Source: Thermoanaerobaculia bacterium (GTDB lineage Bacteria; Acidobacteriota; Thermoanaerobaculia; Gp7-AA8). From it: a stretch of 64,000 nucleotides of DNA. Location: the NCBI GenBank assembly GCA_035569395.1, contig DATMNC010000011.1:67560-131559 (forward strand). The letters are read 5' to 3'. Shown here piece after piece: positions 6,124-21,948 of the stretch. Below the pieces are notes generated by a model. The model was not told the DNA's origin and did no database searches. It saw nothing but the letters and a program-made list of their open reading frames with translations. Position 1 is the first letter of the stretch, and every line of letters starts with the position of its first letter. A program made the position numbers and the translations under genes.

Positions 6124-6256
6124 GAAGCGAATCGTATCGGAATGTCCGCCGACGATACCCGACTTTCCAAACCTGCGGCCCTTTCTTCGTTTCGGCTACG
6201 CCGGGGTATGGAAAAGCCCGTGGTCGCGGCCGTCCCTTCCTTTTGAGGTGAGCGTC

Positions 6257-8056
6257 ATGCCGATCAAACACGTCGTCGTAGTTATGCTCGAGAACCGTTC
6301 GTACGACAATGTCCTGGGGTGGCTGTACAATCCGTCCAACGCCGCGCCGTACAACGAGCCGCCAGCGGGGCAGGCGCTGCTGAACGGGCTTACAGGACAC
6401 GAGTCGAATCCGAATCCCGCTTACGATCCGAACCAGCCTGTCTCGCCCACGAACGAGCCCACCATCCCGGTCCAGAACCTCGGCCCGACGACGTACGGCG
6501 GACGGCCATATCCGGCGACATGCATCCCCATCGACGATCCGGGCGAGTACTTCGATGACATAGCACAGCAGATCACCAGCTCATCCGAGCTGCCCACATC
6601 GAATCCGTACGGCACGTACGTGCCGGGCACTGCGGGGCTGATGCAGGGATTCACGACCAACTATGCGAACCTCGACGGCACAGGGCAGCAGCCTCCGCCA
6701 ACGGCCACGGGAGTCATGAACTACTTCACTCCGGCACAAGTGCCGGTGACGGCGTTCCTGGCCCGCAACTACGCCGTGTGCGACGCATGGTTCGCGTCCG
6801 TGCCCGCGCAGACGTTCACCAACCGCGCGTTCGCTCTCACCGCCGCGCCGGGCGTCCACAAGACCTTGTTTAGCAATTTCAGCCTCGTCGACGACTCCCA
6901 GTGGGGCGATTCGCTGACGGACATGACCTCGCTTCTTTGGGTGCTCGATCAGGTCAAGCCGCCGCCCCCCGATCCGCAATGGAAGGTGTACTTTCACGAC
7001 TATTCGATCGCTTGCATGACCGTCCCGTACATCCAGCAGCAGGGGACGAAGGAAGTCAACATCAACGTCTCCACATTCGACAATTCCGACTGGGGCAACA
7101 CGATCCCGGCGCAATTGAATAGTGGCCCGCTGCCGCCGACGTTCGTCTCCGACGCGACAAGCGGCACTCTGCCGCGGTTCGCGTTTCTCGAGCCGCGCTA
7201 CGGCACGTACAACACGCCGCCGTTTGTCACGGCGCCACCAACGCAACTGCCCGCCAACAGCAATCATCCGGGCCCGGGCTACCGCCAAGCCAGCGTGTAC
7301 GCGCCACCGATCGACGTGGCGTCGGGGGAACTGTTTCTCCTTCAGGTCTACAACGCGCTCGTGTCGAACCAGACGCAGTGGGCGGAGACGCTGCTCATCG
7401 TGACGTACGACGAGCACGGAGGTCTCTTCGACCATGTCCACCCACCCCTGGCGACACCACCCGGTTCCGGCGTTCCGGAAGCGGCCTGCGACTCCGACTC
7501 GGCCGCGAACACTTTCAACTTCAACGTCTTCGGATGCCGCGTCCCGGCCATCATCATCTCGCCGTACATTGCGGCGGGATCGGCGTTCCCGCAGATGTTG
7601 ATCGTCAACGACGCGGCCGAGAACCCACCGGCGCACTTCGATCACACCTCAATCATCAAAACGGTGTGGGATATCTTCGGTCTCTCTTCCGTCCAAGCGT
7701 CGCTCACGGACCGCGATGCGAACGCCGCGAGCCTCGCGCCCGCTCTCGAGCCCGACCCGGTCAACACCACCGGTGCGTACACGGAGACGGTGATTTGCGC
7801 GCCATCGACGCTCGTCTACACCGCGGACGGCACGCAGATCGCGTGGGCGATGAGCGGCCCGACGGATACGCTCACGGCGTCGGTTGTGGGCGACACGCCG
7901 CCATGGCTGAGCATGACCTCCGCCGGAACTTGCTATCTGACCATCACCGTAACGGTGAGCAACCCGCCGAGCACTTCCCAGAGCGTAACCATCCAGGTCA
8001 CCTCGGCCAACGGCGCCACGGCGGGCACCGTGATCGTGAACTTCACCCCTCCGTGA
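6257..8056 (+). CDS. phosphoesterase family protein (phospholipase C / acid phosphatase AcpA-like)
   Basis: Starts MPIKHVVVVMLENRSYDNVLGWL, the hallmark N-terminus of the PF04185 phosphoesterase family. ATG at 6257 is in frame with track ORF 6023..8056. Confidence 0.75.
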   Translation: MPIKHVVVVMLENRSYDNVLGWLYNPSNAAPYNEPPAGQALLNGLTGHESNPNPAYDPNQPVSPTNEPTIPVQNLGPTTYGGRPYPATCIPIDDPGEYFDDIAQQITSSSELPTSNPYGTYVPGTAGLMQGFTTNYANLDGTGQQPPPTATGVMNYFTPAQVPVTAFLARNYAVCDAWFASVPAQTFTNRAFALTAAPGVHKTLFSNFSLVDDSQWGDSLTDMTSLLWVLDQVKPPPPDPQWKVYFHDYSIACMTVPYIQQQGTKEVNINVSTFDNSDWGNTIPAQLNSGPLPPTFVSDATSGTLPRFAFLEPRYGTYNTPPFVTAPPTQLPANSNHPGPGYRQASVYAPPIDVASGELFLLQVYNALVSNQTQWAETLLIVTYDEHGGLFDHVHPPLATPPGSGVPEAACDSDSAANTFNFNVFGCRVPAIIISPYIAAGSAFPQMLIVNDAAENPPAHFDHTSIIKTVWDIFGLSSVQASLTDRDANAASLAPALEPDPVNTTGAYTETVICAPSTLVYTADGTQIAWAMSGPTDTLTASVVGDTPPWLSMTSAGTCYLTITVTVSNPPSTSQSVTIQVTSANGATAGTVIVNFTPP

Positions 8057-8163
8057 TCGTCCGCCGAGGATGCTCCTCCGTGATCCGCAGCGACGCTGGA
8101 TCAGCACCATGGATCGCTATCGTTACCAGACGATCGGCCAGAGTTCTGCTGGGTGTGCGCTCC

Positions 8164-9051
8164 CTACCCCTCACCCCACTTCAACTTGGCGCGCAGCACG
8201 TCGAAGTAGCTCTTGTGAGGCGTCCGGATCAGCGTCACCGGGTTGGGGGATTTGTTGATGCAGACGGTGTCATTCTGGGCGATGGGAAGGCCTTCCTGGC
8301 CGTCGAGGGTGAGGAAAATCTCCTGGTTCGGGGTGGCGATGCCGATCTCGATGTCCAGCGTATCGGGCAGCACGACGGGGCGGTTGCTCAGCATGTGCGG
8401 GCAGATCGGGGTCAGCACGACCGCCCCCATCGTCGGATAGATGATCGGACCGCCGGCGGATAGGTTGTAGGCGGTCGAGCCGGTGGGGGTGGCGATGATC
8501 AGACCATCGGCACGGAACGAGGAAACGAATTCGCCGCCGACAGTTACGCGCATCTCGATGATGCGGGCCAGGGCGCTCTTGTTGATCGTGGCGTCGTTGA
8601 GCACGCGATAGATACGATGGTCGCGTCCCGGTCCGCGCACGGCGACTTCGAGGGCGACGCGCTCTTCGCTCTCGTAATTGCCGGCCAGCACGAGCTCGAT
8701 CACTTCGGGGAACTCCTCGACGCGCACTTCGGTGAGGAAGCCGAGCGTGCCCATGTTCACGCCGAGGATCGGTACGCTCTTCGGTGCGTTACGGGCCACC
8801 GAGAGCAGCGTTCCGTCGCCGCCGAAGGTGATGAGCAGATCGGAATGCTTTCCGAGGTCGCCCTTGGCCACACACTTGCCGCGGTCATTCAGTTTGTCGG
8901 CGGTGGCAAAGTCGAGGCAGACGCCGAAATCGCGCGCCCGAAGATCGGCGGCAGCCTTCGCGGCGAACTGCAGTGCGTCGTCCGAGGTGATCTTTGCGGA
9001 GATCCCGATCGTCTTCACGGCAGGGAGTTTACGCGATCGCTCTTCGCACAT
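8164..9051 (-). CDS. nadK: NAD(+) kinase
   Basis: GGDGTLL and NMGTLGFL motifs are present, with typical length. Confidence 0.85.
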
Positions 9052-10063
9052 CCTCCGGTTCGATGACGACGCGCTCGCCGGCGCGCTCCGGGCCGACGAA
9101 GAGCACCGGATGGAGGACCTTCTCCAGGATGGCGCGCAGGGCCCGCGCGCCCAGCTTCTGCCGCAGAGCGGCCTCGGCGATGGCGACGAGCGCGCCGGAC
9201 GAAAACTCGAGCTGGATCTGGTCGAGCGCGCAGAGCCGCTGGTACTCGGGGATCATCGCCTCGCGGGGCTCGGTCAGGATCGTGACCAGATCGCGGGCCG
9301 TCAGCCGGTCGAGCGCGACGTGCACCGGTAGCCGGCCGAGCAGCTCGGGAAGGAAACCGTATCGCACCAGCTCTTCGGTGGTCACTTCCTTCGCCCGCGC
9401 TTCACCGTCGCCGAAGAAACCAATCGGTTTCGTCTCGCTGTTCTCGTCGATGTCGCTGAACGAGCCGGCGCAGATGAAGAGGATGTTGGCGATGTCGATC
9501 TCGGCGTAGTCGTATTTGTTCCAATGCGAGGTCACGTTGAGCGGCACGAAGAGCTTCTCGCCCTCCAGGATCTTGAGCAGCGACTGCTGCACCCCTTCAC
9601 CGCCGATGTCGCGCGAGCCGGCGCCGGTGCGGCTGCCGCCGGAGCGCCGCGCGATCTTGTCGATCTCGTCGATGAAGACGATGCCGTTCTCTGCCGCATC
9701 GACGTTCTGGTTAGTGGCATAGAGCAGCCGGCCGATGGCCACCTCGACGTCTTCCCCGTAGTAGCCGGCCTCGGTGAACGCGGTGGCGTCGTTGTACGCG
9801 AACGGCACATCGAGGACCTTCGCCAGCGTGCGGGCCAAATAAGTCTTCCCGCAGCCCGACGGCCCGATCATCAGAATGTTCGACTTGCGGATCGATACGT
9901 CGCCGCCGAACTTGAGGTACTCGATCCGCTTGAGATGGTTGTACGCGGCGATGGCCAGCACCTCTTTGGCGTGCTTCTGGCCGACGACGTACTGATCGAG
10001 CTGTTCGTAGATGCGCCGCGGAGTGACGTGGAGGAAGCGGTAAGTGTCACGCTTTTCCTTCAT
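9029..10063 (-). CDS. ClpX-family AAA+ ATPase lacking the N-terminal zinc-binding domain
   Basis: Collinear with ClpX: [22 protein letters not shown], Walker [56 protein letters not shown], sensor-2 [10 protein letters not shown]. There is no C4 zinc-finger N-terminus. It overlaps nadK by 23 nt. Confidence 0.75.
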
Positions 10064-10122
10064 CGGAGAATGGAAGTATAGCCTCCGTTCATGAACGCTG
10101 TGGAAGACTGGCCGCAGTTTTC

Positions 10123-11943
10123 ATGTGTGGAATCAACGGGATCGTCTCGTTTCATGCCAGCGCACCCCCGATCGACGCCGATGAGTTGACGCGGACGCGT
10201 GAGGCGATGCGGTCGCGCGGTCCCGACGCCGCGGGCACGTGGCTTTCTCCCGATCGTCGCGTTGGATTCGGTCACCGCCGGCTCTCAATCATCGACGTCA
10301 GCGAGCGCGCCAACCAGCCGATGGTCAGCCGCGAAGGGGACGCCGTGCTGATCTTCAACGGGGAGATTTACAACTACGCGGCGCTGCGCGAAGAGCTCGA
10401 GCGCGAGGGCGAACGCTTCGATACCACTTCCGATACCGAGGTCGTGCTGCGGATGTACCGGAAACGGGGCCAGGCCATGCTGCCTCAATTGCGCGGCATG
10501 TTCGCATTCGCCATCTGGGATGCGCGCACGAACACGCTCTTCCTGGCGCGCGATCCCTACGGCATCAAGCCGCTGTACTACGCGAATGACGGGAAGACCT
10601 TCCGCTTCGCCTCGCAGGTGAAGGCGATTCTGGCCGGTGGCGCCGTCTCTACGTCACGCGACCCCGCCGGCATCGTCGGCTTTCTTCTCCGCGGCCACGT
10701 GCCGGAGCCATTCACGATCTATGAGGCCATCCGCGAGCTTCCGGCGGGAAGCTCGATGGTGGTGACGCGCGACGGCGCTTCCGCACCGCGCTCCTATTTC
10801 TCTCTCGCCACCGTGCTCCGCGACGCGGTGAACGAGCATCGCCGCTACAGCGACGGCGAGCGGGCGGAGATCATTGCCCGCGCCGTGCGGGAGTCGGTTC
10901 GCTACCACCTCGTCTCGGATGTCCCGGTCGGCGCGTTTCTCTCCGCCGGTCGCGACTCCGGCACCATCGTCGCCCTGGCCAGCGAGAGCGGGATTCCCCT
11001 GCAGACAGTGACTCTCCGCTTCGAGGAGTACGCCGGCACACACAAAGACGAGGCGCCCCTGGCCGCGGTGACCGCGCGGGCGTACGGAACCGTTCATCAG
11101 ACGCAAACTCTCTCGGCCGAGATGTTTCGCCGCTCGTTGCCGCACGCGCTCGAGGCGATGGATCAGCCCTCGCTCGACGGCCTCAACTCGTACTTCGTCT
11201 GCAAAGCGGCGGCGGAGCTGGGATGGAAGGTGGCGCTGTCGGGCACCGGCGGTGATGAGCTGTTCGGCGGCTATTCGACGTTTCGCATCATTCCGCGGTT
11301 CATCCGAACCTTCGGAGTCTTCCGGCACATGCCGGCGCTGGCGAACGCGTTCACGCGAATGCAGCCACGCATGGCCAGAAACGGGGCTCGCTTCAGTCCG
11401 AAGACAGCTTATACGCTGAAGTACTGCACCTCGTATGAAGGCGCCTACTTGATGAAGCGAGGCCACTTTCTCCCGGATGACGTCAGCTCCGTCGTCGGCG
11501 AGGAGATGGCGCGCGAAGGGCTGAAGCGTCTGGGCATCATGGAGATCATTCGCGAGGCCATCACCCCCGACCCGGGAACGCCCTTCACCCGCGTCGCGGC
11601 GCTGGAGTCGTCGCTTTTTCTGAGAAGCCAGCTCCTGCGCGACATCGACTGGGCGTCGATGGCTCATTCGCTGGAGGTGCGAGTGCCCCTCGTCGATGCC
11701 TTCCTTCTTCGCGAGGTCGCCCCGGCGGTCATTTCGATGTCGGGAAGAAAAGGCAAGGAGCTACTTGCCGCCTCGCCCACGCGACTGCTCCCCGCGGCCA
11801 TCCTCGAGCGGAAAAAAAGCGGCTTCACCGTCCCACTCCGCGACTGGCTGGCCCAGGAGCGCGACGTGACCAAGCATTTCGGTGCACGCCCATGGGCGCT
11901 GCACATCCTCGACGCAGGCGGTCACTTCGCGATAGCGCGATAG
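10123..11943 (+). CDS. asnB: asparagine synthetase (glutamine-hydrolysing)
   Basis: Starts MCGINGIV (N-terminal Cys amidotransferase class II), followed by an Asn_synthase domain (SGGxDS-like LSAGRDSG). Confidence 0.85.
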   Translation: MCGINGIVSFHASAPPIDADELTRTREAMRSRGPDAAGTWLSPDRRVGFGHRRLSIIDVSERANQPMVSREGDAVLIFNGEIYNYAALREELEREGERFDTTSDTEVVLRMYRKRGQAMLPQLRGMFAFAIWDARTNTLFLARDPYGIKPLYYANDGKTFRFASQVKAILAGGAVSTSRDPAGIVGFLLRGHVPEPFTIYEAIRELPAGSSMVVTRDGASAPRSYFSLATVLRDAVNEHRRYSDGERAEIIARAVRESVRYHLVSDVPVGAFLSAGRDSGTIVALASESGIPLQTVTLRFEEYAGTHKDEAPLAAVTARAYGTVHQTQTLSAEMFRRSLPHALEAMDQPSLDGLNSYFVCKAAAELGWKVALSGTGGDELFGGYSTFRIIPRFIRTFGVFRHMPALANAFTRMQPRMARNGARFSPKTAYTLKYCTSYEGAYLMKRGHFLPDDVSSVVGEEMAREGLKRLGIMEIIREAITPDPGTPFTRVAALESSLFLRSQLLRDIDWASMAHSLEVRVPLVDAFLLREVAPAVISMSGRKGKELLAASPTRLLPAAILERKKSGFTVPLRDWLAQERDVTKHFGARPWALHILDAGGHFAIAR

Positions 11944-12017
11944 TGCCGATACACTGAAAAGGAGTTCCGGGGGCGCGGAGGAAGCCAGCGCCGGAGAACC
12001 ACGGAACAGGAGCGTCC

Positions 12018-13766
12018 ATGAACTTCGTGAGCCGGCGACACATTGCGGGCGGGTTGGTGCTGTTTGCAACATTCGCGGTAGCGACGACAGTGGCCGGAGA
12101 GCCGGGGGGCATCGTTGCCGGAAGCGGGGTCATCACAAAGCGTCCGGGAAGCGCCCGGGAGAGTCAGGTCGACCGTGCGCGAGCCTATTGGAAGACCCTC
12201 AACCTGATCGGCTTTCGTGGAGTGGGGCTGCTTGCAAAAGACGGCAAGACAGTGCTCCTCGAAGGCTCCGGTGGGGTAAACCCGACCGCAACATTCAACC
12301 TCGCCTCGATTGCCAAGTCGATCACGGCAATCGCTGTGCTGCGCCTGGCTCACCGCGGCAAGCTGGGGTTGGACGACACGCTCGACCATTTTTTTCCGGA
12401 TGCGCCGGCCGACAAACGAGCCATCACCGTTCATCAACTGCTGACCCACACCGGAGGTCTCGGGAATCCTACTGGAGATACCGCCGAGGGAACCAAGGAC
12501 CGGGGCCAGGCGGTACGGATGATCCTGGCGACAGCGCTTGTCGACAAGCCCGGGCATTCCCACCACTACTCCAACGACGGGTACACCCTGCTGGCGGCGA
12601 TCCTGGAAGTCGCGGCTTCGAAGAGCTGGGAGCAAGTGATCCACGACGAAATCCTCCGGCCGGCAGGAATGCGACACACGTTCTTCCTGGGTGACTCCCT
12701 GCCCAGTGGGCCGTACGCGATCGCCCGAGCCGCGGTCACCGACGGTGAACCCGTGGAGAGCGACGCCAACTGGGGCTCCAAGGGCGGTGCCGGGATTTAC
12801 TCGAACGCTGAGGATCTGCTGCGCTTCATGAACGCCGCCGTGGATGGAACGTTGCTGGGTGCGCAAGGTGCGCGCGAGCTTGGCAAGTCGTATGCCCCGG
12901 AAGGGCAACTGGAGTACTCGCGCGTGTTTAGTCTGGCGAACATCGCCGGCCGCGGACCGCAGTGGGGGCACGGGGGCGCGGATACCGGAAGCGGCCACTA
13001 TTCGGATCTGGTGTACTACCCGAACACGCGGCTCCTCATAGTCATCCTCGGCTTAGACGACGAGGATCTGAAGACCCAGGTCAGCTCTGGACTTAGCAAA
13101 GTCTTGTTCAGGGAGGGAGCCGGCGAAGTGCCGCCGTCGCGCCCAGGCCACCCAGCGGCCTTCCGCGAACGTCTGGAGCTCCGAGGCGGCAGCCTTCTTT
13201 TCACGATCGAACCCGGCGCCGGGCCGGCGTTGCTCCTGCCTCAAAACTCCGACGCGACATCATTCCTTGTAGCGCGGTCGGAGGCGGAGAAGGCGACGCT
13301 GGAAGGGTGCGTCACAGAGACGGGAAAGCTGCTCGAACAAGTCGCGCAGTTAGCCGCGGCCGATGGGGAATTGCCGGACAGCCAGGTCGGTCGAGCGGCC
13401 ACGGCCTGGCGCCAGGCCAACCTTGAAAACGGCCCTGTGAAGAGCACCTTGATCCTGGGAGCAACGCCGAACTGGGTGGATGGCCTCGGTGGGACGCTCT
13501 CCTTCGTTCGCGTCGCGCGCGAGAAGCAAACGAGCGTGTTTCGACTCTACTGGAGTGGGTCAACGTTGCGTGCCCGCGGGGGACAGGTCTACAAGAACCC
13601 CGCACCGCTGCGACTGATCGACTTCGGAGGAGACGAGTACGGCGGCTGGAACCCCGCGATCGGGGTGTACGTCGACCTCCGACTCTCACTCAAAGACGGT
13701 GAGCGACAGGCGATCCTCGAGGCCGGCGGGAAGAGCATCGCGCTGACGGCGTCGTCTCAGCCGTGA
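12018..13766 (+). CDS. serine hydrolase, beta-lactamase/penicillin-binding-protein family, secreted
   Basis: Signal peptide is present; an SxxK motif in NLASIAKSITAIAVLRL and a YSN motif (HHYSNDGY) are typical of class C beta-lactamase-like fold. Confidence 0.75.
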   Translation: MNFVSRRHIAGGLVLFATFAVATTVAGEPGGIVAGSGVITKRPGSARESQVDRARAYWKTLNLIGFRGVGLLAKDGKTVLLEGSGGVNPTATFNLASIAKSITAIAVLRLAHRGKLGLDDTLDHFFPDAPADKRAITVHQLLTHTGGLGNPTGDTAEGTKDRGQAVRMILATALVDKPGHSHHYSNDGYTLLAAILEVAASKSWEQVIHDEILRPAGMRHTFFLGDSLPSGPYAIARAAVTDGEPVESDANWGSKGGAGIYSNAEDLLRFMNAAVDGTLLGAQGARELGKSYAPEGQLEYSRVFSLANIAGRGPQWGHGGADTGSGHYSDLVYYPNTRLLIVILGLDDEDLKTQVSSGLSKVLFREGAGEVPPSRPGHPAAFRERLELRGGSLLFTIEPGAGPALLLPQNSDATSFLVARSEAEKATLEGCVTETGKLLEQVAQLAAADGELPDSQVGRAATAWRQANLENGPVKSTLILGATPNWVDGLGGTLSFVRVAREKQTSVFRLYWSGSTLRARGGQVYKNPAPLRLIDFGGDEYGGWNPAIGVYVDLRLSLKDGERQAILEAGGKSIALTASSQP

Positions 13767-13789
13767 GAGACGGTCGGCAAGCGGCGTCA

Positions 13790-13935
13790 CGGTCTGGTCT
13801 CGCGGTCTCGCGGTGGGAAACGGGTTACCGGGTTGTTGCGTTGCACAGTTGCTGGTTGGCGCCGAGCACCCTGGAAACCCAGTACGCAGCAACCCGACAC
13901 TGCGAGACCGCGCAACCGCGAGACCCCGCAACCCC
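13790..13935. repeat. palindromic repeat element, family 1, copy b
   Basis: The arms are ggtctcgcggtctcgcggtg ... ctgcgagaccgcgcaaccgcgagaccccgcaacc. It starts ~25 bp after the stop codon at 13764-13766. Confidence 0.8.
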
Positions 13936-14190
13936 GCTGTCAAAAAACCTTTCCATCCACGGCCCACTTGACGCAGCGCCGCCAGGCGTTCCCGAGTAAG
14001 CCGCTCCTTTTCAATCAGTTAGCCATTCCGGCACGCTGGCCGTTCGATCGCACTACGCCTCCCGCGAAAGGAGGTGGTGCTAACGGAGAGAGCCAATTCC
14101 AACTGATGCAGAGGATCAAAGGTCCTCGTGTGGGAAACAGCCAAAACAACGAAACGCGTCAACGGTCAACGAAAAAGACAACCAACGAAT

Positions 14191-14601
14191 ATGGAGAAGA
14201 AGACCATGCGGAAGTCCCACCTCATCGTCCTCGCAGTCATTCTGATCGCCACCATTTCCAACGCCTCCATGGCCGCCGAAGCCCAGCCGGCTCCGGCATC
14301 GACACCGGCCGGCGTCGTCAACATCAACACCGCGGACGCCACGCAACTGGCCATGCTTCCGCGCGTCGGAGCAAAGGCCGCGCAGCGGATCGCTGACTAT
14401 CGCAAGGAGCACGGCAACTTCAAGAAGACCTCCGACCTGATGCAGGTCAAAGGCTTCGGCGAGAAGTCGTTCGAGCGCCTGGCTGCCTTGCTCACCGTCG
14501 ACGGCAAGACCACGCTCACCACGAAGGTCCACACCACCCGCGCCGGCAAGTCGTCCAAGTCGTCGAAGAAGCCCTCATCGCCCACCCCCGCGGCGCGATA
14601 A
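14191..14601 (+). CDS. comEA: ComEA-like helix-hairpin-helix DNA-binding protein (competence protein)
   Basis: Signal/TM N-terminus, then VVNINTADATQLAMLPRVGAKAAQRIADYRKEHGNFKKTSDLMQVKGFGEKSFERL, which matches the ComEA HhH consensus. Confidence 0.8.
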   Translation: MEKKTMRKSHLIVLAVILIATISNASMAAEAQPAPASTPAGVVNINTADATQLAMLPRVGAKAAQRIADYRKEHGNFKKTSDLMQVKGFGEKSFERLAALLTVDGKTTLTTKVHTTRAGKSSKSSKKPSSPTPAAR

Positions 14602-14605
14602 CGCG

Positions 14606-14660
14606 CCGTCCCTCCAAAAGGCCGCCTCGCGCAAGCGAGGCGGCCGTCTTGGAAGGGACC
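14606..14660 (+). terminator. strong GC hairpin downstream of comEA (terminator / RNA-stability element, no U-run)
   Basis: Perfect 11-bp stem ggccgcctcgc-gcaa-gcgaggcggcc, extended by ccctccaaaag/tcttggaaggg. Confidence 0.4.
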
Positions 14661-14755
14661 GGTGGATTCGTAGATCAGTGGATTAGTGGATTTTGCAGAC
14701 CACCGCGTTCTCCAACCACTAATCCACTAATCCACTCGATTCACCCAATCCACTG
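14660..14755. repeat. palindromic repeat element, family 2 (termini CAGTGGATTAGTGGATT / AATCCACTAATCCACTG), copy a
   Basis: Left arm ggtggattcgtagatcagtggattagtggatt, right arm aaccactaatccactaatccactcg...aatccactg. Related copies are at 53207 and 59100. Confidence 0.8.
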
Positions 14756-14784
14756 CTTCACCGAAAGGAGAACGTGTGTCCCGA

Positions 14785-16503
14785 CTACATCCCGCTCCGC
14801 CGCACGACCAGCCGCTGTGCCTCGTAGGTCTGCACCAGCGACAACGGATTCGACCGCAGCAACTCTTCGGAGAAGGCTTCCGACAGCACGCTGCCGTCCA
14901 TGTCGCGCCCGACCGGCAGGCCGGCCAGGTAGAGCACCGTCGGGACGATATCGACCGCGAGCGCGGAACGCGGCTTCTCGCTGTGGACGACGCCGGTGCC
15001 ACGGATGAGCACGAAGCCATCGTCGGCGCTCGGATCGGCGGGATCGATGAAGTCGTGCAGCAGCGCGTATGGCGTGGCCGGAAGCTGCGGCGGGACCGGG
15101 CCGGAGGGCGAGACGACGACGATCATGTGATTCGGGTAGTCGCGCGCCAGCGACGTGAGCATCCGGTCGATCTGCTCGGCATAGGCACGCAGCACCAGCC
15201 CCTTCACCGTCGAGCGCGCCGGCAGGTCGTTACTGAAGATGTGGATGGCACGCTGGGCCTGCTCAAAGCCGCCGAGCGTACAGACCGTGAGCGGAAAAAC
15301 CGGAGCCGAGCGGCGGAGGATGGCCATCGAGGTCAGATCGGCGGTCAGCCCGTTCACGATCCGCTGCCGGGCGTTGCCGGTACCGTTGAAACGCTGTGTC
15401 TCAGACTCGGGCGGCGCGGTCTCGAGCTTCGCGATTTCCGCGGCGAATTGGGCCGGAGCGACATCGCCCGGACTGTGCGCCGGATTCTCGAAGTAGCGGT
15501 CGGTGACGACGCGCGCCGCACCGATCGGTTCCGACCACGGCCAGCCGATCACGGCCGCGTGCAGGCCGAGCCTCTCGAAGAGAGTCCAGAGCGGCAGAGC
15601 CAGACCGGAGGGGAGCGGCGTCGAAACGCGCGTCACCGGCGGAATCAGGCCCCAGGCTTTGAAGCCGACGCCGGCCGGAATGATCAGGAATCGCTCGCCG
15701 GCGCGGTTCAACGGCGTCTGGTAGCCGAGCCTGCCGGTCACCCCGTGCCGGAACGGCAGCTTCCCGGTGGCAACGGACGCCCAGAGCGATTTGGGGCTGA
15801 TCGTCGGGAACGGCTCGAGCCGCGTGAAATAGCCGTGCGTCCTGGCCTGCTCGAAGAACGGCAGCGAGCCTTCGCCGGCCAGGGTCAGGATCCAGTCGTA
15901 CGGAAGATTGCGGATGGCCACGACGATGACCGGCCGCTGCCCGGCCACCGTTCCGATTTCCGCCACCACCACGGCGTGCTCCTCAGTGCGATAGCTGTCG
16001 CGGCGCTGGAACAGGAAGACCGAAGAGACCGCGACCACCACGACGCCGATGACGACGAGGATGCGCGAGACCCTGCGGTCAGCGTTGCGCTCGGCGAACC
16101 AGATCATCAGCAAAACGAACGATGTGGCCGTGATGAGGTTCGTCGCCTTCGACAAAACCCGGACCGCGCCGATGGGGAGAAAGTTCCCCCGGAACACCTC
16201 CAGGTGCATCCAGTAGATGGCCGCGGCGAAGAACGCGGCCAGGACGACGAAGCCGAAGCCGTGTGGCCGGAAGCCGCCGTCCGCTTCCGGTTTGCCGAGG
16301 AGGCGAACGCGCAGTACGCGAAGAGACCAGAGCGCGGTTCCGAACAGCAGCCCGCAGATCAGGCCGTAGACGATGGTGACCGTTGCGAGGCGACCGGGCG
16401 TGATGTCGATCTGCGGATTCAGAAAGTAGAGAAGATTGGCGATGTAGAGGCCGAAGATCGCGCCCGCGAGCACGCGCTTGATGTACGCCCAGCGTATCGG
16501 CAT
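14785..16503 (-). CDS. membrane-anchored alkaline-phosphatase-superfamily protein (type I phosphodiesterase/nucleotide pyrophosphatase-like)
   Basis: About 170 aa of N-terminal TM helices, followed by VAIRNLPYDW...PTISPKSLWASVATGKLPFRHG and later HMIVVVSPSGP, typical of an AlkP-like metal-binding core. Confidence 0.6.
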   Translation of the reverse strand: MPIRWAYIKRVLAGAIFGLYIANLLYFLNPQIDITPGRLATVTIVYGLICGLLFGTALWSLRVLRVRLLGKPEADGGFRPHGFGFVVLAAFFAAAIYWMHLEVFRGNFLPIGAVRVLSKATNLITATSFVLLMIWFAERNADRRVSRILVVIGVVVVAVSSVFLFQRRDSYRTEEHAVVVAEIGTVAGQRPVIVVAIRNLPYDWILTLAGEGSLPFFEQARTHGYFTRLEPFPTISPKSLWASVATGKLPFRHGVTGRLGYQTPLNRAGERFLIIPAGVGFKAWGLIPPVTRVSTPLPSGLALPLWTLFERLGLHAAVIGWPWSEPIGAARVVTDRYFENPAHSPGDVAPAQFAAEIAKLETAPPESETQRFNGTGNARQRIVNGLTADLTSMAILRRSAPVFPLTVCTLGGFEQAQRAIHIFSNDLPARSTVKGLVLRAYAEQIDRMLTSLARDYPNHMIVVVSPSGPVPPQLPATPYALLHDFIDPADPSADDGFVLIRGTGVVHSEKPRSALAVDIVPTVLYLAGLPVGRDMDGSVLSEAFSEELLRSNPLSLVQTYEAQRLVVRRSGM

Positions 16504-16538
16504 GTCGGCGTGCGCAGTGTATCGCGCGGAGGCGCGGC

Positions 16539-19500
16539 ATGATCACCGCCGAGCGCCTTCAGGGCTGCTGTTCCAGCGACGACGCCTTCACCCTCCTCCG
16601 CGACCTCGGCTACGGCGTCTCGCCGATCGCCATCGCGGCGGCCGGCTGGCGACGCGCCGGGATCGAGATCCCGTGGAGCGACAAGGTCGCACTCCACCTG
16701 GCCGCGCGCACGCCGCAACTCGATGTCTACGTAATCGCCGGTGACGAATTGCCGGACTCCGGCGCCATCACCGCGTTCCTCCGATCGCTGGCCACGTACA
16801 ACGCCCTCGTCAAGCCGGTCGCTCTCGGATTGAGCGCAGGGCGGTTGACGATCCACGATCTCTCTGCCCGCCGCGAGCCGAGACGCCTCGACGTTGATCT
16901 CAATCATCCGACGGCACATGCGCTCGACCGTCTCAATCTTCTCGGCAGCGGCAGCGACCCGCAACGGATCTTCGACCGTGCGCTCGACCGCGAGTCGCTC
17001 ACGCGCCAGTTCTTCGAGCGCTTCCGGCGCGCCGTGCGTGAGGTCTCGCAGACGATCCGCGCCACGGTGCCGGCGGAGCCGCCGGATGCAGCGGACGATC
17101 AGGCGTTGCTTCTCCTCTCCCGGCTCCTCTTTCTCTACTTCATCCAGCAGAAAGGGTGGCTGAACGGGGAGCGCCGCTTCCTCGTCGACCGCATCGAGGC
17201 CGCCGTACGCGATCAACGAGGCGTCTACACCGCACTCTATGAACCGCTCTTCTTTGGATGCCTGAATACCGCCGCGCGCGACCGCGACCGCATCGCGTGC
17301 CGGCTCGGCAGGATTCCGTATCTCAACGGTGGCCTCTTCGAGCCGTCGGCATTCGAAGAGCGCAATCCTGCGCTCACGCTTCCAGACGATCTTCTGCAGC
17401 GCGTCGTCGAAGAGGTATTCGAGAGGTTCGCCTTCTCGATCGACGAATCCGACGCGGCCGGCGCGCATATCGATCCGGAGATGCTCGGCAAAGTCTTCGA
17501 GTCGCTGATGAACACCGACGAGCGGCTATCGACAGGAAGCTTCTACACGCCACGGGCGATCGTCGATGTCCTGGCCGCGCGCGCGATCGTCGCCTGGTTG
17601 AGCGATGGCGACGTCGAGACGGGCGAGATGCTGGAGCGAATCCTTCGGGGAGAGGCTGGGCGGCGTCTTCGCAACGGCGAGGCGCTGGCGAGACGGCTCG
17701 GGTCAATTGCCATCCTCGACCCCGCCTGCGGCTCGGGCGCCTTTCTTCTTTCCGCATTGCGAATCGTCGAGCGCCTGATGACCGCGCTGCATCCGAGCCC
17801 GCCGCCTGACCTTCGCCGCCGCATCGTGGAGCGTTCGCTCTACGGCGTCGATCTGAAGCCGGAAGCCGTACGCCTTTGCGAGCTGCGGCTCTGGCTGGCC
17901 ATCGTGTCGCAAACGGACCAGTCGATCGACAACATCGAGCCGCTGCCGAACCTTGACCGCAACATCCTGCAGGGCAACTCGCTTCTCAGCCCTACCGATT
18001 TTCTCGGCGACAACCGCGCCGACATCTATCGCCAATGGGTCTACGCGCTGCGCGCGCAGTCCGACCTGATCGAACGTTATCGCAACGCGCCGCATCGCGA
18101 GCGCGCACAGGTGGCGCGGCTCATACGAGCGAACGACGGCCGGCTTGCCAGCGAGCTCCTGGCCAAGGCCATCGATCTCGACGAGCTCGAGCAGGAAGAA
18201 CTTTGTGCCCCGCAGCGCGACCTCTTCGGGCGCTTGCGCGAGATGAACATCGAACGCTGCCGCGATCTGCATGAGCGCATCGGTGCGAGCCGCCGGATGC
18301 TCGAACGGATCGAAGACGGCCAGATCGGCTTCTTTTCCTTCGATGTTCACTTCGCGCATGTCATGGCCCGGGGCGGATTCGACGTCGTGATCGGCAATCC
18401 GCCGTGGGTGCGCAACAGCCGCATCGAGCCGCGGGCGAAAAAGATGTACGCCGAGCGCTTCGCCCTCTTCCGAGGCAACGGTGCCGGCGGTGCCGCATTT
18501 CATCAGCCGGACCTCTCCATCGCCTTCGTCGAAAGGGCTCTTTCGCTCATGGCACCCGGCGGAGTGGTGTCGTTGCTCGTTCCTGCCAAGGTGCTCAACT
18601 CCGGCTATGCGGCGCCACTGCGAAGATACGCCGCTTCGGCGGCGAATATCATCGCGCTCGACGACTGGTCGTCCGACGCGAAACGGCACTTCGATGCCGA
18701 TACGTTTCCGCTCGGTATCACGCTCGCTCAACGAAACGGCCGGCCCCGGCGAGCGCGCATCTCCGTCACTTCGGATGGGAAATCGTTTGCTCTCCCGTCG
18801 GCTGCTTTGAGCCTCGGAGGCTCCGAGTGGTCGCTCCTCCCTCCGGATATCCATGCGATCGTGGCACGTATTCACGCCACGCATTCGCCGCTGGCTGAAA
18901 CTCTCGGCCGCACGCCGGTGATGGGCGTGAAGACCGGCGACAACGGCGCCTTCTTTCTCGACGTGAAACGCGTTCGCGCCAAGACGGTCGAAACCACCGA
19001 CGGCCTGCACATTCCGCTCACTGCCGTTTGTCGCTGCGTACGGGGCCGCGACGTACGCCGCTGGCAGGTTGCCGAGCCGGCCTGGATGCTTTGGCCGCCC
19101 GCCGGCGGATGGCGTAAACCGCCCCGCTGGGTGGAGCAACTCGCTGAAGCACGCGGCGTGGAGGCCGGGGCATTGCGGCTGTCGCATGTCCGCCCGGAGC
19201 ACGTCGGCATCAAGGTGGTGTGGAAGGATCTCTCCCGCGGTCTCAACGCCGCCGTGCTCGACGGGACGTTACGCCTCGGCGATCGCGGCATTCCGCTCGT
19301 GCCGAATCAGACGCTCTACGCACTCGATGCCGCGTCGTTCGAAGAAGCCTGCGTCCTGGCGGCGCTTCTGAACTCGACCATCGTCAACGCCCTGGCGATC
19401 GCCATCGCTGAGCGCGCCAAGGACTTCTACTTCCGCTACTTCGGCCGGACGATCGCACGCCTCCCGTTGCCGGCGGTCACACCCTCGAGCGAATCGTGGA

Positions 19501-19661
19501 GACTCCTTCTCCGAGCGGCACGCCGCGCGCGGCGGACTCCGGATGCGGCAGCCGACGCCATCGACGCGACCGTCGCCTCGCTCTACGGCGTCTCCTCGGA
19601 AGAGCACGCGCGCCTCGCCTTCTTCCTTCGCAATCGGCTCGGCATGGACGGCGATGCCTGA
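16539..19661 (+). CDS. N6-adenine DNA methyltransferase, gamma-class, large (1040 aa) with N- and C-terminal extensions (PglX/DrmMI/type IIG-like)
   Basis: Motif order GSFYTPRAIV (X), ILDPACGSGAFLLSAL (I, AdoMet), then VIGNPPWV (IV, NPPW). About 290 aa lie before the MTase core and ~430 aa after it (putative target-recognition region). The TGA stop at 19659-61 overlaps the next ATG. Confidence 0.75.
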   Translation: MITAERLQGCCSSDDAFTLLRDLGYGVSPIAIAAAGWRRAGIEIPWSDKVALHLAARTPQLDVYVIAGDELPDSGAITAFLRSLATYNALVKPVALGLSAGRLTIHDLSARREPRRLDVDLNHPTAHALDRLNLLGSGSDPQRIFDRALDRESLTRQFFERFRRAVREVSQTIRATVPAEPPDAADDQALLLLSRLLFLYFIQQKGWLNGERRFLVDRIEAAVRDQRGVYTALYEPLFFGCLNTAARDRDRIACRLGRIPYLNGGLFEPSAFEERNPALTLPDDLLQRVVEEVFERFAFSIDESDAAGAHIDPEMLGKVFESLMNTDERLSTGSFYTPRAIVDVLAARAIVAWLSDGDVETGEMLERILRGEAGRRLRNGEALARRLGSIAILDPACGSGAFLLSALRIVERLMTALHPSPPPDLRRRIVERSLYGVDLKPEAVRLCELRLWLAIVSQTDQSIDNIEPLPNLDRNILQGNSLLSPTDFLGDNRADIYRQWVYALRAQSDLIERYRNAPHRERAQVARLIRANDGRLASELLAKAIDLDELEQEELCAPQRDLFGRLREMNIERCRDLHERIGASRRMLERIEDGQIGFFSFDVHFAHVMARGGFDVVIGNPPWVRNSRIEPRAKKMYAERFALFRGNGAGGAAFHQPDLSIAFVERALSLMAPGGVVSLLVPAKVLNSGYAAPLRRYAASAANIIALDDWSSDAKRHFDADTFPLGITLAQRNGRPRRARISVTSDGKSFALPSAALSLGGSEWSLLPPDIHAIVARIHATHSPLAETLGRTPVMGVKTGDNGAFFLDVKRVRAKTVETTDGLHIPLTAVCRCVRGRDVRRWQVAEPAWMLWPPAGGWRKPPRWVEQLAEARGVEAGALRLSHVRPEHVGIKVVWKDLSRGLNAAVLDGTLRLGDRGIPLVPNQTLYALDAASFEEACVLAALLNSTIVNALAIAIAERAKDFYFRYFGRTIARLPLPAVTPSSESWRLLLRAARRARRTPDAAADAIDATVASLYGVSSEEHARLAFFLRNRLGMDGDA

Positions 19662-21276
19662 CCTTGCCCGGCACCAGCGGGACGCCGTCGAGCGTGCGCT
19701 GGCTCTGATCGCCCGCCATGGAGGGGCGATCCTCGCCGACGACGTCGGCCTCGGCAAGTCGTACGTCGCGGCGAGCGTCGCCGCCGCATGGCACCGTCGC
19801 GGAAGCCACGTCGAGCTCATCGTTCCCGCGTCGCTTGCGGAACAGTGGCGCGAGACGCTGCGCGAGTTCTGTATCGATGCGCGCATCATCACGCACGATG
19901 CCCTGGCCGGCGATCCGACGCTCAGCGAAGGGGAGCGATTCCTGGTCATCGACGAAGCGCACGCCTTTCGCAATCGCCGGACGCAACGCTGGTCAGCCCT
20001 GGCTCGCCGTTCAATCGCATCGAGGCTGCTCCTGGTCACGGCGACACCGATCTGCAACTCCGCCGACGACCTTCTTGCACTCATCGCGCTGATCGCCGCC
20101 GACGACACGCTGCGCTGTTCCGGCGTAGCGTCGATCGACGATGCCTTCGCCGTTCGCGACGGACCTTCGCTCGACACCATCGTCCGCGAGCTCATCATCC
20201 GGCGCGAGCGCGACGTTCTCCCACCAGACTTGTTCTTTGGCACACTCGATCGGCGGGTCATCCGGCATCCGATCGCCGATGCGCCGATCGACGCGTTGCA
20301 GTTTCCGCTCAGCACCAGCGCGCCGTTGCTGCGCCAGTTTCTCTGGCGCCGGCTGGAGTCGAGTCCGGCCGCGGTGCTCGAATCGGTGCGGCGGCAGCTT
20401 CGCTTCTACGAGCGCGTCGTCGAAAGCGGCCGAGCCCTTTCGCGCCGCGATTATCGAAGCGCCTTCGCCGCTGAAGCGGATGAGGACGCGTTTCAGCAAA
20501 TCCTCTTCTGGGATCTGGTCACGCCCGCGGATGGCCTCGATACGAACGCGATTCGTGGCGAGATGGAGCGGCTAGCGGCCGTTCGCGTCGTCGTCGAGCG
20601 CGCCGAGGACACGAAGGCGGCGCTTCTCGAAGCCGCGATGACGGCCGAGCCTACGCTGATCTTCACCGGCGCGGCGGCGACGGCGCGCGCGCTGTCGAAA
20701 CGGTTGCGTAGCGGCCTGGCCACCGCGCGCGACGGATGCGGCGCGATCGATGCCTTTCGCAATGGCTTGATCGACCGCCTCGTTGCCACCGACCTCGCCT
20801 CGGAAGGACTCAATCTGCAACGGGCCGGCGTCGTCGTGCACTACGACATCCCCTGGAACCCGGTGAAGCTCGACCAGCGCAATGGCCGCGCCTACCGCAT
20901 CGGCCAGAGGCGCGACGCGGTCCGCGCCATCTACTTCCTGCCCGAGCGGCGCAGCCGTGTCGTCGAAACGATCGCATCGAAGAACCGTACGCGTCGCCGC
21001 ATCCTCGGCATGCATCCGCGCCCGATCGAGTTCGCCGCTCCGCATGTGCTCGATCTTCCGCAGCGGCTTCCCGGCGATTCTCCCGCTCTCAACCTGATCC
21101 GCGCATTGCGCGCCCACGGACTCACCCCTACGCCCGCGCTCTTTCGCCGTCACCGCGCCGGCGTGGAGCAGTTGTTCGAAGAGATGGCGCACGAGTATCT
21201 CGACGGCAGCCGGTTGTCGGAATTGGAGAAGGTGCTGGAGAGGGAGAGGGTGGTGACGTCCGGACGGCGCGCCTAG
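19654..21276 (+). CDS. SNF2-family helicase/ATPase (minimal core)
   Basis: Motifs ILADDVGLGKSYVA (I), LVIDEAHAFRN (II, DEAH), LLVTATPICNSADDLLALIALI (III), C-terminal helicase VATDLASEGLNLQRAGVVVHYDIPWNPVKLDQRNGRAYRIGQ. Start ATG 19654 overlaps the MTase stop by 8 nt (ATGCCTGA). Confidence 0.75.
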   Translation: MPDLARHQRDAVERALALIARHGGAILADDVGLGKSYVAASVAAAWHRRGSHVELIVPASLAEQWRETLREFCIDARIITHDALAGDPTLSEGERFLVIDEAHAFRNRRTQRWSALARRSIASRLLLVTATPICNSADDLLALIALIAADDTLRCSGVASIDDAFAVRDGPSLDTIVRELIIRRERDVLPPDLFFGTLDRRVIRHPIADAPIDALQFPLSTSAPLLRQFLWRRLESSPAAVLESVRRQLRFYERVVESGRALSRRDYRSAFAAEADEDAFQQILFWDLVTPADGLDTNAIRGEMERLAAVRVVVERAEDTKAALLEAAMTAEPTLIFTGAAATARALSKRLRSGLATARDGCGAIDAFRNGLIDRLVATDLASEGLNLQRAGVVVHYDIPWNPVKLDQRNGRAYRIGQRRDAVRAIYFLPERRSRVVETIASKNRTRRRILGMHPRPIEFAAPHVLDLPQRLPGDSPALNLIRALRAHGLTPTPALFRRHRAGVEQLFEEMAHEYLDGSRLSELEKVLERERVVTSGRRA

Positions 21277-21411
21277 CGGGGCGTTCCGCCATGCCGCCGC
21301 GTCATTCCGTCCTCCCACCCGGGTCATTCTGACCCGCAAAACGGCCCGTTCCCCCTGAAAACCGATGGCACCACGCTTGTTCCAGTCCCTCCCCGAAAAG
21401 GAGACACACCC

Positions 21412-21948
21412 ATGAAGAAAACAGCGATCGCAGTACTGGCACTTTTGATGGCGGCGACGTTTGCCGCCGCGGATGACCATCCGGGCGGACCGGGACCGGG
21501 AGCACCCGCGGGTTACGAGGGCGGCGGCGGATATCTCGACGTCGCGTCAGACGGCACCGTGATCATCACCCGAGCTGCCGCGAGCAGCACGCACGCTAAC
21601 CCGGTGGCCGAGCTCGTGGCCATCCGCAACGGCGCCATCGCCTGGACGGCAACGCTTCCCTCACCGCGCACCCAGACCGAGATCTCCGGTTCGCAGGTGA
21701 TCGAGGTACGCGAGCCGGCACCCGCCGCCGGCGCCACGCCGGCGACCACGCTGACGGCGCTTTCGATCTCCAACGGCACCGAGGCCTGGACGCTCAACAT
21801 CACCGGACGCGTCAATAACTTGACGCCATTCAGCGGAGGGACCTATGCCGTCGTAGTCATACCGGCTGCGACCTCGGGTGGCACACCCACCCGAAACCTC
21901 GTTGCGATCAGCAGCAACGGTGTCGTTCTTTCAACCGTGGCCTTCTGA
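21412..21948 (+). CDS. hypothetical secreted protein
   Basis: AAGGAG RBS is present and the signal peptide is MKKTAIAVLALLMAATFAAA; no recognisable domain. Confidence 0.55.
   Translation: MKKTAIAVLALLMAATFAAADDHPGGPGPGAPAGYEGGGGYLDVASDGTVIITRAAASSTHANPVAELVAIRNGAIAWTATLPSPRTQTEISGSQVIEVREPAPAAGATPATTLTALSISNGTEAWTLNITGRVNNLTPFSGGTYAVVVIPAATSGGTPTRNLVAISSNGVVLSTVAF

Follow-up and report, generated by a model that had tools for sequence, protein, structure and literature searches.

The window described here is a 64-kb stretch of DNA (64,000 nucleotides) from a Thermoanaerobaculia bacterium. It contains a pair of coupled genes, one encoding a gamma-class N6-adenine DNA methyltransferase (MTase) and the other a minimal SNF2-family ATPase. 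Known MTase-SNF2 pairs are parts of defence systems which also possess a nuclease (DISARM, Hma/BR and the PLD-SNF2 operons). Here the two-protein core has no recognisable nuclease, yet it is intact, coupled, and fixed in position through the diversification of a whole class. The pair is a nuclease-less, chromosomally fixed derivative and not a self-contained restriction module. The explanation favoured here, at a probability of about 0.45, is that it represents a nuclease-free MTase-motor module, a stable chromosomal gene pair of Thermoanaerobaculia which has been domesticated for host-genome methylation.

Occurrence, inheritance and selection of the gene pair

Identity to full-length orthologues of the MTase and the SNF2 protein declines by degrees from 93% to about 57%, the two orthologues often being on contigs of equal length, and the homologues carry Thermoanaerobaculia or Acidobacteriota names. 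One genome per GTDB species was scanned, and 80 loci were listed of more than 583 relatives matched; these comprise about 48 loci from Thermoanaerobaculia/Acidobacteriota (43-94% identity) and 32 from Gemmatimonadota (31-37%). Of the species-level loci, 72 have a complete MTase gene and at least 1.2 kb of downstream DNA; in all 72, an SNF2 gene follows in the same orientation. When 1.84 billion cluster representatives were searched exhaustively, 2697 matched at E <= 1e-30; the best 150 are nearly all about 1000-1150 residues long, together with some shorter fragments, and SNF2 is downstream in both of the two cluster-representative loci inspected. Clustering of the open reading frames (ORFs) of the 80 loci gave no third gene common to Acidobacteriota and Gemmatimonadota.

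Gene order and sequence divergence indicate that the pair is inherited vertically at one fixed chromosomal position across Thermoanaerobaculia. Loci at 58-75% identity have both flanks in common. The upstream flank comprises NAD kinase, an AAA ATPase, a ComEA-like gene, sometimes a GspH-like pseudopilin, and an AlkP-like gene; the downstream flank of the relatives comprises a sigma54 response regulator, DUF192, rhomboid, PTPS, DUF1802 and DnaJ genes. In the ORF clustering, each of these flank families is present in 21-44 of the 48 Acidobacteriota loci. When metagenome loci were scanned outward from the AlkP-like gene, the MTase gene was adjacent in 35 of the 36 with room for it, including two loci which retain a remnant only.

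The two genes are seen to co-diverge with their flanks, and the substitution data place them under the same purifying selection. Across 19 loci, the distance matrix of the MTase correlates with that of SNF2 at r=0.93, with NAD kinase at 0.85 and with the AlkP-like protein at 0.79. The ratio of nonsynonymous to synonymous substitution (dN/dS) is 0.11-0.19 for the MTase and SNF2 genes, whose dS values resemble those of the flanks. In an unsaturated comparison (dS ~0.19), dN/dS is 0.16 for the MTase and 0.19 for SNF2; the flanking genes give 0.16 (AlkP-like), 0.14 (NAD kinase) and 0.05 (AAA ATPase).

The pair is carried neither by phages nor by plasmids. Phage and viral collections contain no orthologue save on one IMG/VR contig; phage records otherwise give only generic type IIG matches. 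That contig (L137, IMGVR_UViG_3300003315_000001) has the chromosomal ComEA/AlkP-like/MTase/SNF2 synteny at its end; it is probably a piece of the host, or sequence flanking a prophage, rather than a phage copy of the pair.

The pair has been deleted in one close population, represented by two assemblies (L092, Ga0247679_1000200, and L111, Ga0247676_1000060; positions ~5800-5965). The AlkP-like protein of this population is 95% identical to that of the window, and the flank has about 91% nucleotide identity. Around 43-55 MTase codons are left, followed by a hairpin-like sequence and then by unrelated genes, coding for an M4 peptidase and for a TPR protein; SNF2 has been lost entirely. Since the same junction is present in both assemblies, it is unlikely to be an artefact of assembly. 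Both the carrier populations and this natural deletion variant are already represented in long-read soil metagenomes.

The deletion, and the loss of a nuclease domain, could suggest that the pair is a decaying and functionless remnant of a former restriction-type system. Against this stand the low dN/dS values, catalytic motifs which are invariant down to about 57% identity, a conserved overlapping start, and reading frames which are both intact in 72 of 72 loci. Barring artefacts of metagenome-assembled genomes, the selection data refute decay, and it is given hardly any weight.

Domain structure and the search for a nuclease

The MTase gene (16539..19661, plus strand) encodes a protein of 1040 residues of the Eco57I/PglX/MmeI/CamA-like type, as indicated by the ORF itself and by Pfam, PADLOC, PDB profile and Foldseek matches. 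It begins with an alpha/beta domain (residues 1-140; 16539..16958) which is weakly restriction-endonuclease-like and lacks a conserved catalytic motif. A helical spacer follows (residues 141-330; 16959..17528), resembling the MmeI helical spacer or DUF7814 on weak Pfam matches (MmeI_hel, DUF7814). The catalytic domain (residues 331-725; 17529..18713) is defined by its motifs and includes a conserved helical insertion of about 120 residues (481-600). A TaqI-like C-terminal target-recognition domain (residues 726-1000; 18714..19538) is supported by alignment to CamA and by structural matches to CamA, BseCI and TaqI, and the protein ends in terminal helices.

The motifs occur in the order X-I-IV and precede the TaqI-like recognition domain, as in gamma N6-adenine MTases: GSFYTP at residues 333-338 (17535-17552), DPACGSGAFL at 394-403 (17718-17747), and NPPW at 620-623 (18396-18407). 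The recognition domain contains GVKTGDN at 18924-18944. Pfam matches are to Eco57I (9.5e-24), N6_Mtase and MmeI_Mtase. The best PADLOC matches, all of them partial, are REase_MTase_IIG (1.8e-39) and DrmMI (1.7e-29). A profile of 37 orthologues, compared with solved structures, matches CamA (9e-13), MmeI (1e-8) and BrxX/PglX (1.5e-8); the MmeI alignment spans residues 188-416, and the CamA alignment runs through the recognition domain. In a Foldseek search with the AF2 model (pLDDT 74), PglX/BrxX is closest (1e-14), then CamA, MmeI, BseCI, BpuSI and TaqI. An earlier note, made from the sequence alone, had recognised a gamma-class enzyme of this length with these motifs and had likened it to PglX, DrmMI and type IIG enzymes; both points are borne out.

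Every motif residue is invariant in the 37 orthologues. Mean pairwise identity is 0.71 in the helical spacer, 0.68-0.72 in the catalytic core and 0.57-0.64 in the recognition domain, which has 51 invariant columns; the recognition domain is thus conserved at about the same level as the rest of the MTase. The G+C content at third codon positions (GC3) is 0.79-0.80 in both the MTase and SNF2 genes, which is typical of real genes in the window.

The SNF2 gene (19654..21276, plus strand) encodes a protein of 540 residues, consisting of two RecA-like lobes and a conserved tail of about 100 residues. All of the helicase motifs named in the earlier note are present: GLGKS (19747-19761), DEAH (19951-19962), TATPICN (20038-20058), HYDIPWNP (20839-20862) and QRNGRAYRIGQ (20875-20907). 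Pfam SNF2-rel_dom and Helicase_C match above their cut-offs, and the motif residues are invariant in 31 orthologues, as befits an SNF2-family ATPase. The best solved relative is the 500-residue Sulfolobus SNF2/Rad54 core 1z63 (PDB profile, 1.3e-20); SWR1, INO80 and RapA are also matched. The nearest NCBIfam families are DrmD (112 bits, cut-off 610), DpdE and a PLD-like anti-phage helicase, none of which reaches its cut-off. Pfam detects no accessory or nuclease domain in the protein.

The stop codon of the MTase gene and the start codon of the SNF2 gene overlap by 8 nt (ATGCCTGA, 19654..19661, plus strand). There is an earlier in-frame ATG at 19543, which would give a protein of 577 residues and is the start given by automatic ORF lists; the start at 19654 is preferred because alignments with the orthologues begin at residue 1 and the -8 nt overlap is kept in them. 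An overlapping stop and start (-8, -11 or -23 nt) is kept in 38 of 44 Acidobacteriota loci, which agrees with the translational coupling proposed earlier.

Whether either protein has a nuclease site bears directly on the function of the pair. The earlier note saw no obvious nuclease domain and suggested that the N-terminal region be compared with nuclease folds. That comparison found a weak likeness to restriction endonucleases with the catalytic residues lacking. Within Thermoanaerobaculia, D62, N88, K92 and D107 of the N-domain are invariant; they form no D...(D/E)xK pattern, and they are not kept in relatives at 35-54% identity or in plasmid relatives which retain the N-domain. No catalytic PD-(D/E)xK residues are conserved in this domain among the orthologues or the distant and plasmid relatives. 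From these alignments it is concluded that the N-domain is a non-catalytic feature of the family; neither protein has a conserved nuclease site.

A functional single-chain type IIG/IIL enzyme, similar to MmeI or DrdV, would require an active and unusual nuclease in the N-domain; the SNF2 protein would then provide ATP dependence, in a split version of a type ISP-like arrangement. The window MTase does have the same order of N-domain, helical spacer, gamma MTase and recognition domain as the type IIL/IIG enzymes MmeI, DrdV and BpuSI. However, those enzymes act alone, without a helicase, and the N-terminal PD-(D/E)xK endonuclease domain which characterises them is lacking here, as its residues are missing from the window N-domain. 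An active N-terminal nuclease was rejected as unsupported, given that no catalytic residues are conserved, and a type IIG/IIL enzyme is considered improbable.

Relatives, origin and proposed function

More distant relatives are found on plasmids, with MTases at 27-29% identity, among them plasmids of Nostoc sp. UHCC 0926 (pn2) and Deinococcus radiophilus (pRadio5). The operons (L090, Nostoc pn2, 6245-14893; L091, D. radiophilus pRadio5, 6512-15935) consist of an HTH gene, an Eco57I-type MTase of 1060-1095 residues, small ORFs or DUF262, and a PLD(HKD)-SNF2 protein of about 1090 residues. The PLD (HKD) domain is intact in these SNF2 proteins (PLDc_2, 4e-13 and 4.5e-10). The operons adjoin toxin-antitoxin genes and an EVE-domain gene, and they have the appearance of a restriction-like defence system not yet described, related to DISARM and Hma/BR but distinct from them. 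The window SNF2 protein aligns to residues 232-783 of a 1097-residue PLD-SNF2 protein (25% identity, 7e-37); because the alignment spans only these residues, the window protein is without the PLD domain and the C-terminal region. Pfam likewise gives no PLDc match to it, so the PLD HxK...D site fused to SNF2 which defines HKD(PLD)-SNF2 systems is missing.

Relatives from Gemmatimonadota and elsewhere (35-40% identity) are intermediate, with SNF2 proteins of 780-1080 residues. They have an element of about 190 residues between the MTase and the motor, which in L089 (11435-12004) is a coupled gene of its own and in L058 (11285-11884) is joined to the N-terminus of SNF2; it also lies between the MTase and SNF2 genes in L069, L083, L084, L086 and L087. 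The element has no Pfam or PADLOC match. It is collinear with PLD domains, with HxK replaced by W-x-P(-DF) and GSxN by GAHY. Both the plasmid and the Gemmatimonadota relatives fall below all curated NCBIfam cut-offs.

The simplest reading of these relatives is a series which would start with a mobile-element MTase and an active HKD-SNF2 nuclease-helicase, pass through a degenerate PLD domain, and end with the PLD domain absent, alongside chromosomal fixation. The likely ancestors of the pair are restriction-like systems that combine a PglX/MmeI-type MTase with an HKD(PLD)-nuclease-SNF2 helicase, and its sequence relationships make a defence ancestry plausible. The earlier note had proposed a restriction or defence module. 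As to ancestry this is plausible, given the plasmid HKD-SNF2 relatives and the probable PLD remnant; as to a self-contained defence module it does not, given the housekeeping context. The note had itself held that conservation of the pair in a housekeeping context would tell against its proposal, and in dozens of Thermoanaerobaculia species both flanks do prove to be conserved.

The pair might still defend the cell without a nuclease of its own. The MTase would mark self DNA, and the complex would translocate on unmethylated foreign DNA; there it would either block replication or transcription in the manner of BREX, or recruit a nuclease encoded elsewhere. The kinship of both proteins favours such a role (type IIG enzymes, DrmMI and PglX for the MTase; DrmD, DpdE, HKD+Snf2, BrxH and HmaA for SNF2), as do the HKD-SNF2, DUF262, toxin-antitoxin and EVE-domain genes at the plasmid operons. 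An active motor kept over the long term implies an ATP-driven step beyond methylation, and the pair is dispensable in one strain. Defence systems are, however, usually patchy and island-borne, whereas this pair has a fixed position, housekeeping genes on both flanks and class-wide co-divergence. The 64-kb window has no other defence genes, mobile-element genes are not adjacent, and a nuclease motif is lacking. The recognition domain is conserved about as strongly as the catalytic core, and there is no third gene common to both phyla. Continued defence of this kind is the chief rival to the preferred explanation, though judged somewhat unlikely.

Under the preferred explanation, domestication for host-genome methylation, the MTase and the SNF2 protein would be made in fixed proportion and would form a complex, by analogy with Mod-Res and related systems. 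The MTase would read a specific, probably asymmetric DNA site and methylate adenine, probably on one strand; MmeI, PglX and CamA all methylate one strand of an asymmetric site. The SNF2 protein would use ATP to track along double-stranded DNA or to strip bound proteins from it, and this motor action would allow chromosomal sites to be found and methylated efficiently after replication. Since the pair has no nuclease and is unable to restrict by cleavage alone, its role is read as host-genome methylation, of an epigenetic or DNA-transaction kind, and not as classical restriction.

Several points weigh against this explanation. All of the homologous families are associated with defence, and PglX-type systems of the BREX kind can defend without an obvious nuclease. 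Solitary MTases such as Dam, CcrM and CamA need no motor; that one has been retained here may hint at an activity on foreign DNA. The deletion in a close population shows the pair to be non-essential and dispensable. MmeI-type enzymes switch specificity with few substitutions, so that conservation of the recognition domain is no proof of constant specificity. Complex formation and motor-assisted methylation would both have to hold. As to origin, the 190-residue Gemmatimonadota element is probably a degenerate PLD remnant, to judge from its sequence, but its match to PLD domains in hhalign is weak (probability 28%, E 6.5e-4), and we infer the direction of change to be loss of the PLD domain and not gain.

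A fuller version of events is that a restriction-type system was domesticated into a housekeeping, ATP-driven N6-methyladenine machine with a physically coupled SNF2 motor, in Thermoanaerobaculia and, less reduced, in Gemmatimonadota. In this complete form it is unlikely; if true, it would be a bacterial counterpart of SNF2-dependent eukaryotic methylation (DDM1/LSH-DNMTs, Dnmt5) and might serve as a model for the emergence of such partnerships from defence systems. Should the motor serve methylation, remodeller-assisted DNA methylation would be documented for the first time in a prokaryote, and the pair would be a clear instance of a defence system domesticated to a host epigenetic function. 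If it still defends, it would be among the simplest cleavage-independent, methylation-based systems, and unusual in being core-genomic.

Neighbouring genes and comparison with known systems

The window lies within a 124-kb soil-metagenome contig (k141_144798, ENA ERZ27253680), and G+C content around the pair is 63-68%. Upstream, the gene order is NAD kinase, AAA ATPase, asparagine synthase, a beta-lactamase-family protein, a ComEA-like HHH protein and an AlkP-like membrane protein. Downstream of the pair are genes for a 178-residue hypothetical protein, a GT4 glycosyltransferase, a YfhO-like protein, an aldo-keto reductase and a Ser/Thr kinase. Ten more large ORFs of the window are housekeeping genes (MetH/MTHFR-like, amidohydrolase, phosphoesterase, SPFH, RNase E/G, MlaD, ABC transporter and type II secretion system ATPase among the assignments). 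Neither the neighbours nor these ten ORFs contain drm, brx or other PADLOC families; the sole PADLOC match among them is that of the ABC transporter to mad3, via its ATPase domain. No mobile-element genes adjoin the pair, and there is no defence island in the 64-kb window.

The AlkP-like gene (14785-16503, minus strand) encodes a membrane protein of 572 residues. Its N-terminal part has about five transmembrane segments, and its AlkP/NPP-type domain is divergent (Pfam Phosphodiest, a weak match at 1.5e-5). The earlier note described an oppositely oriented membrane gene of this kind, and it is a real minus-strand gene, since its GC3 is 0.87 compared with 0.65 for the antisense plus-strand ORF. 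The AlkP-like and MTase genes are divergent, with start codons 35 nt apart, and the promoter of each must lie within the coding region of the other. A promoter and terminator scan of 16000-21700 gave counts at or below shuffle expectation. The divergent layout is present in 44 of the 48 Acidobacteriota loci and missing from the Gemmatimonadota loci; conservation of the AlkP-like neighbour is limited to Thermoanaerobaculia.

Two other arrangements were considered and rejected. One was a plus-strand operon of three genes, beginning with an ORF at 14776-16542 that has an ATGA overlap with the MTase start; this ORF has a GC3 of 0.65 and no Pfam match. The other was that the AlkP-like protein is an analogue of PglZ. 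It has no PDB sequence match at all and no PglZ match in Pfam (E up to 1) or PADLOC; it has about five transmembrane segments, and it is missing from the Gemmatimonadota modules.

Some features of the surrounding block are of separate interest. A beta-lactamase-family gene encoding 582 residues (12018-13766, plus strand) is missing from the collinear close relative L111, where the alignment skips from window position 13938 to 11946, as well as from syntenic loci at greater distance; within the conserved block it varies between strains by insertion or deletion. A ComEA-like HHH_3 DNA-binding gene (14128-14601, plus strand) is found upstream of the AlkP-like/MTase/SNF2 block throughout Thermoanaerobaculia, and many relatives add a GspH-like pseudopilin upstream of the block (GspH/N_methyl genes in L002, L004 and L008). 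The position of these DNA-uptake-type genes beside a DNA-modification module may be coincidental synteny. Elsewhere in the window, an ORF of 1458 residues (33176-37552, plus strand) has a good coding signal (GC3 0.82), no Pfam match at 1e-5 and none in PADLOC.

As the earlier note had it, the pair matches no standard described system: no curated cut-off is reached, and no published account of an MTase and SNF2 pair in Thermoanaerobaculia was found in the literature. It could instead be a fragment of class 1 DISARM, BREX or Hma/BR, with the other genes outside the window or elsewhere in the genome. DrmD, DrmMI, PglX and HmaA are indeed among the top PADLOC and NCBIfam matches, but the scores are far under the curated cut-offs (112 against 610 bits for DrmD; 42-47 against 400-900 for PglX). 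The note had reported DrmA, DrmB, DrmC, BrxC, PglZ and BrxL to be absent nearby, and none of them is present in the window ORFs scanned or as a conserved family in the 80 loci. It had also raised the chance of drm or brx genes just outside the window; the flanks of 8-10 kb in the loci of 80 species hold only housekeeping genes, and no conserved family corresponds to DrmA, DrmB, BrxC, PglZ or a protein of DUF499 size. The COG1743-type MTase and DUF499 ATPase of Hma/BR are both absent. The version of this proposal with linked genes is largely refuted, and fragmentation of a known system is very improbable overall.

In its workings the pair would resemble the MTase-helicase core of class 1 DISARM, of Hma/BR and of the plasmid operons with an HKD-SNF2 protein, but it lacks the features that define each of them. 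PglX/BrxX of BREX is, like the window protein, a large single-chain gamma N6-MTase with an N-domain and a C-terminal recognition region; it lacks a nuclease and acts with ATPases, and among structural matches to the full-length MTase model it ranks first. However, the NCBIfam PglX models (BREX-1, -2, -5 and -6) give only 38-47 bits against cut-offs of 400-900, so that no PglX subtype is assigned. The window has no BrxA, BrxB, BrxC, BrxL or PglZ, and the partner is a single minimal SNF2 protein.

In class 1 DISARM, an adenine MTase of the same broad family adjoins an SNF2 helicase, and DrmD tops both the NCBIfam and the PADLOC matches of the window SNF2 protein. The differences are that the DrmD model (NF038317) falls well short of its cut-off, that the window protein has 540 residues against a model of about 1000 positions, and that DrmA, DrmB (DUF1998) and DrmC (PLD) are absent from every locus examined, namely the window and the 80 loci.

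The core of BR/Hma consists of a DUF499 AAA+ ATPase, a COG1743/BrxXI-type MTase and an SNF2 helicase fused to a nuclease (PMC12839542; PMC7641849); type-2 BR helicases bear an N-terminal HKD nuclease (PMC12839542). The window pair shares with it the combination of methylation and an SNF2 helicase, and HmaA matches the window SNF2 core at 5e-22 in PADLOC. The three-part core is not present: the window lacks the DUF499 ATPase, DUF3780 and a nuclease, and its MTase is of Eco57I type and not COG1743/BrxXI type.

The plasmid MTase/HKD(PLD)-SNF2 operons (PADLOC 'HKD+Snf2' C3a139; NCBIfam PLD-like anti-phage protein) have the same gene order as the window. Their MTases are homologous to the window MTase over most of its length, including the non-catalytic N-domain, and the SNF2 cores are also homologous. 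They differ in that the PLD nuclease domain is intact, that a further region of about 300 residues is present at the C-terminus, that DUF262 or small ORFs are added, and that they are plasmid-borne; the window SNF2 protein, in comparison, is a bare motor and chromosomal.

Among solved structures, CamA of Clostridioides difficile is closest in sequence to the window MTase across the catalytic and recognition domains (9e-13). Both MTases are lineage-conserved and lack a cognate nuclease. The window MTase has the character of an orphan enzyme of its lineage, in that no cognate nuclease is linked to it and it is conserved, syntenic and vertically inherited. CamA, unlike it, is an enzyme of 577 residues with neither N-domain nor spacer, and no motor accompanies it.

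Coupling of an SNF2 ATPase to DNA methylation without cleavage occurs in eukaryotes, where DDM1/LSH act with DNMTs and Dnmt5 is a fusion of SNF2 and MTase. These enzymes are C5-cytosine MTases acting on chromatin, and homology with the Thermoanaerobaculia pair is implied only in the SNF2 core; the resemblance is one of functional analogy.

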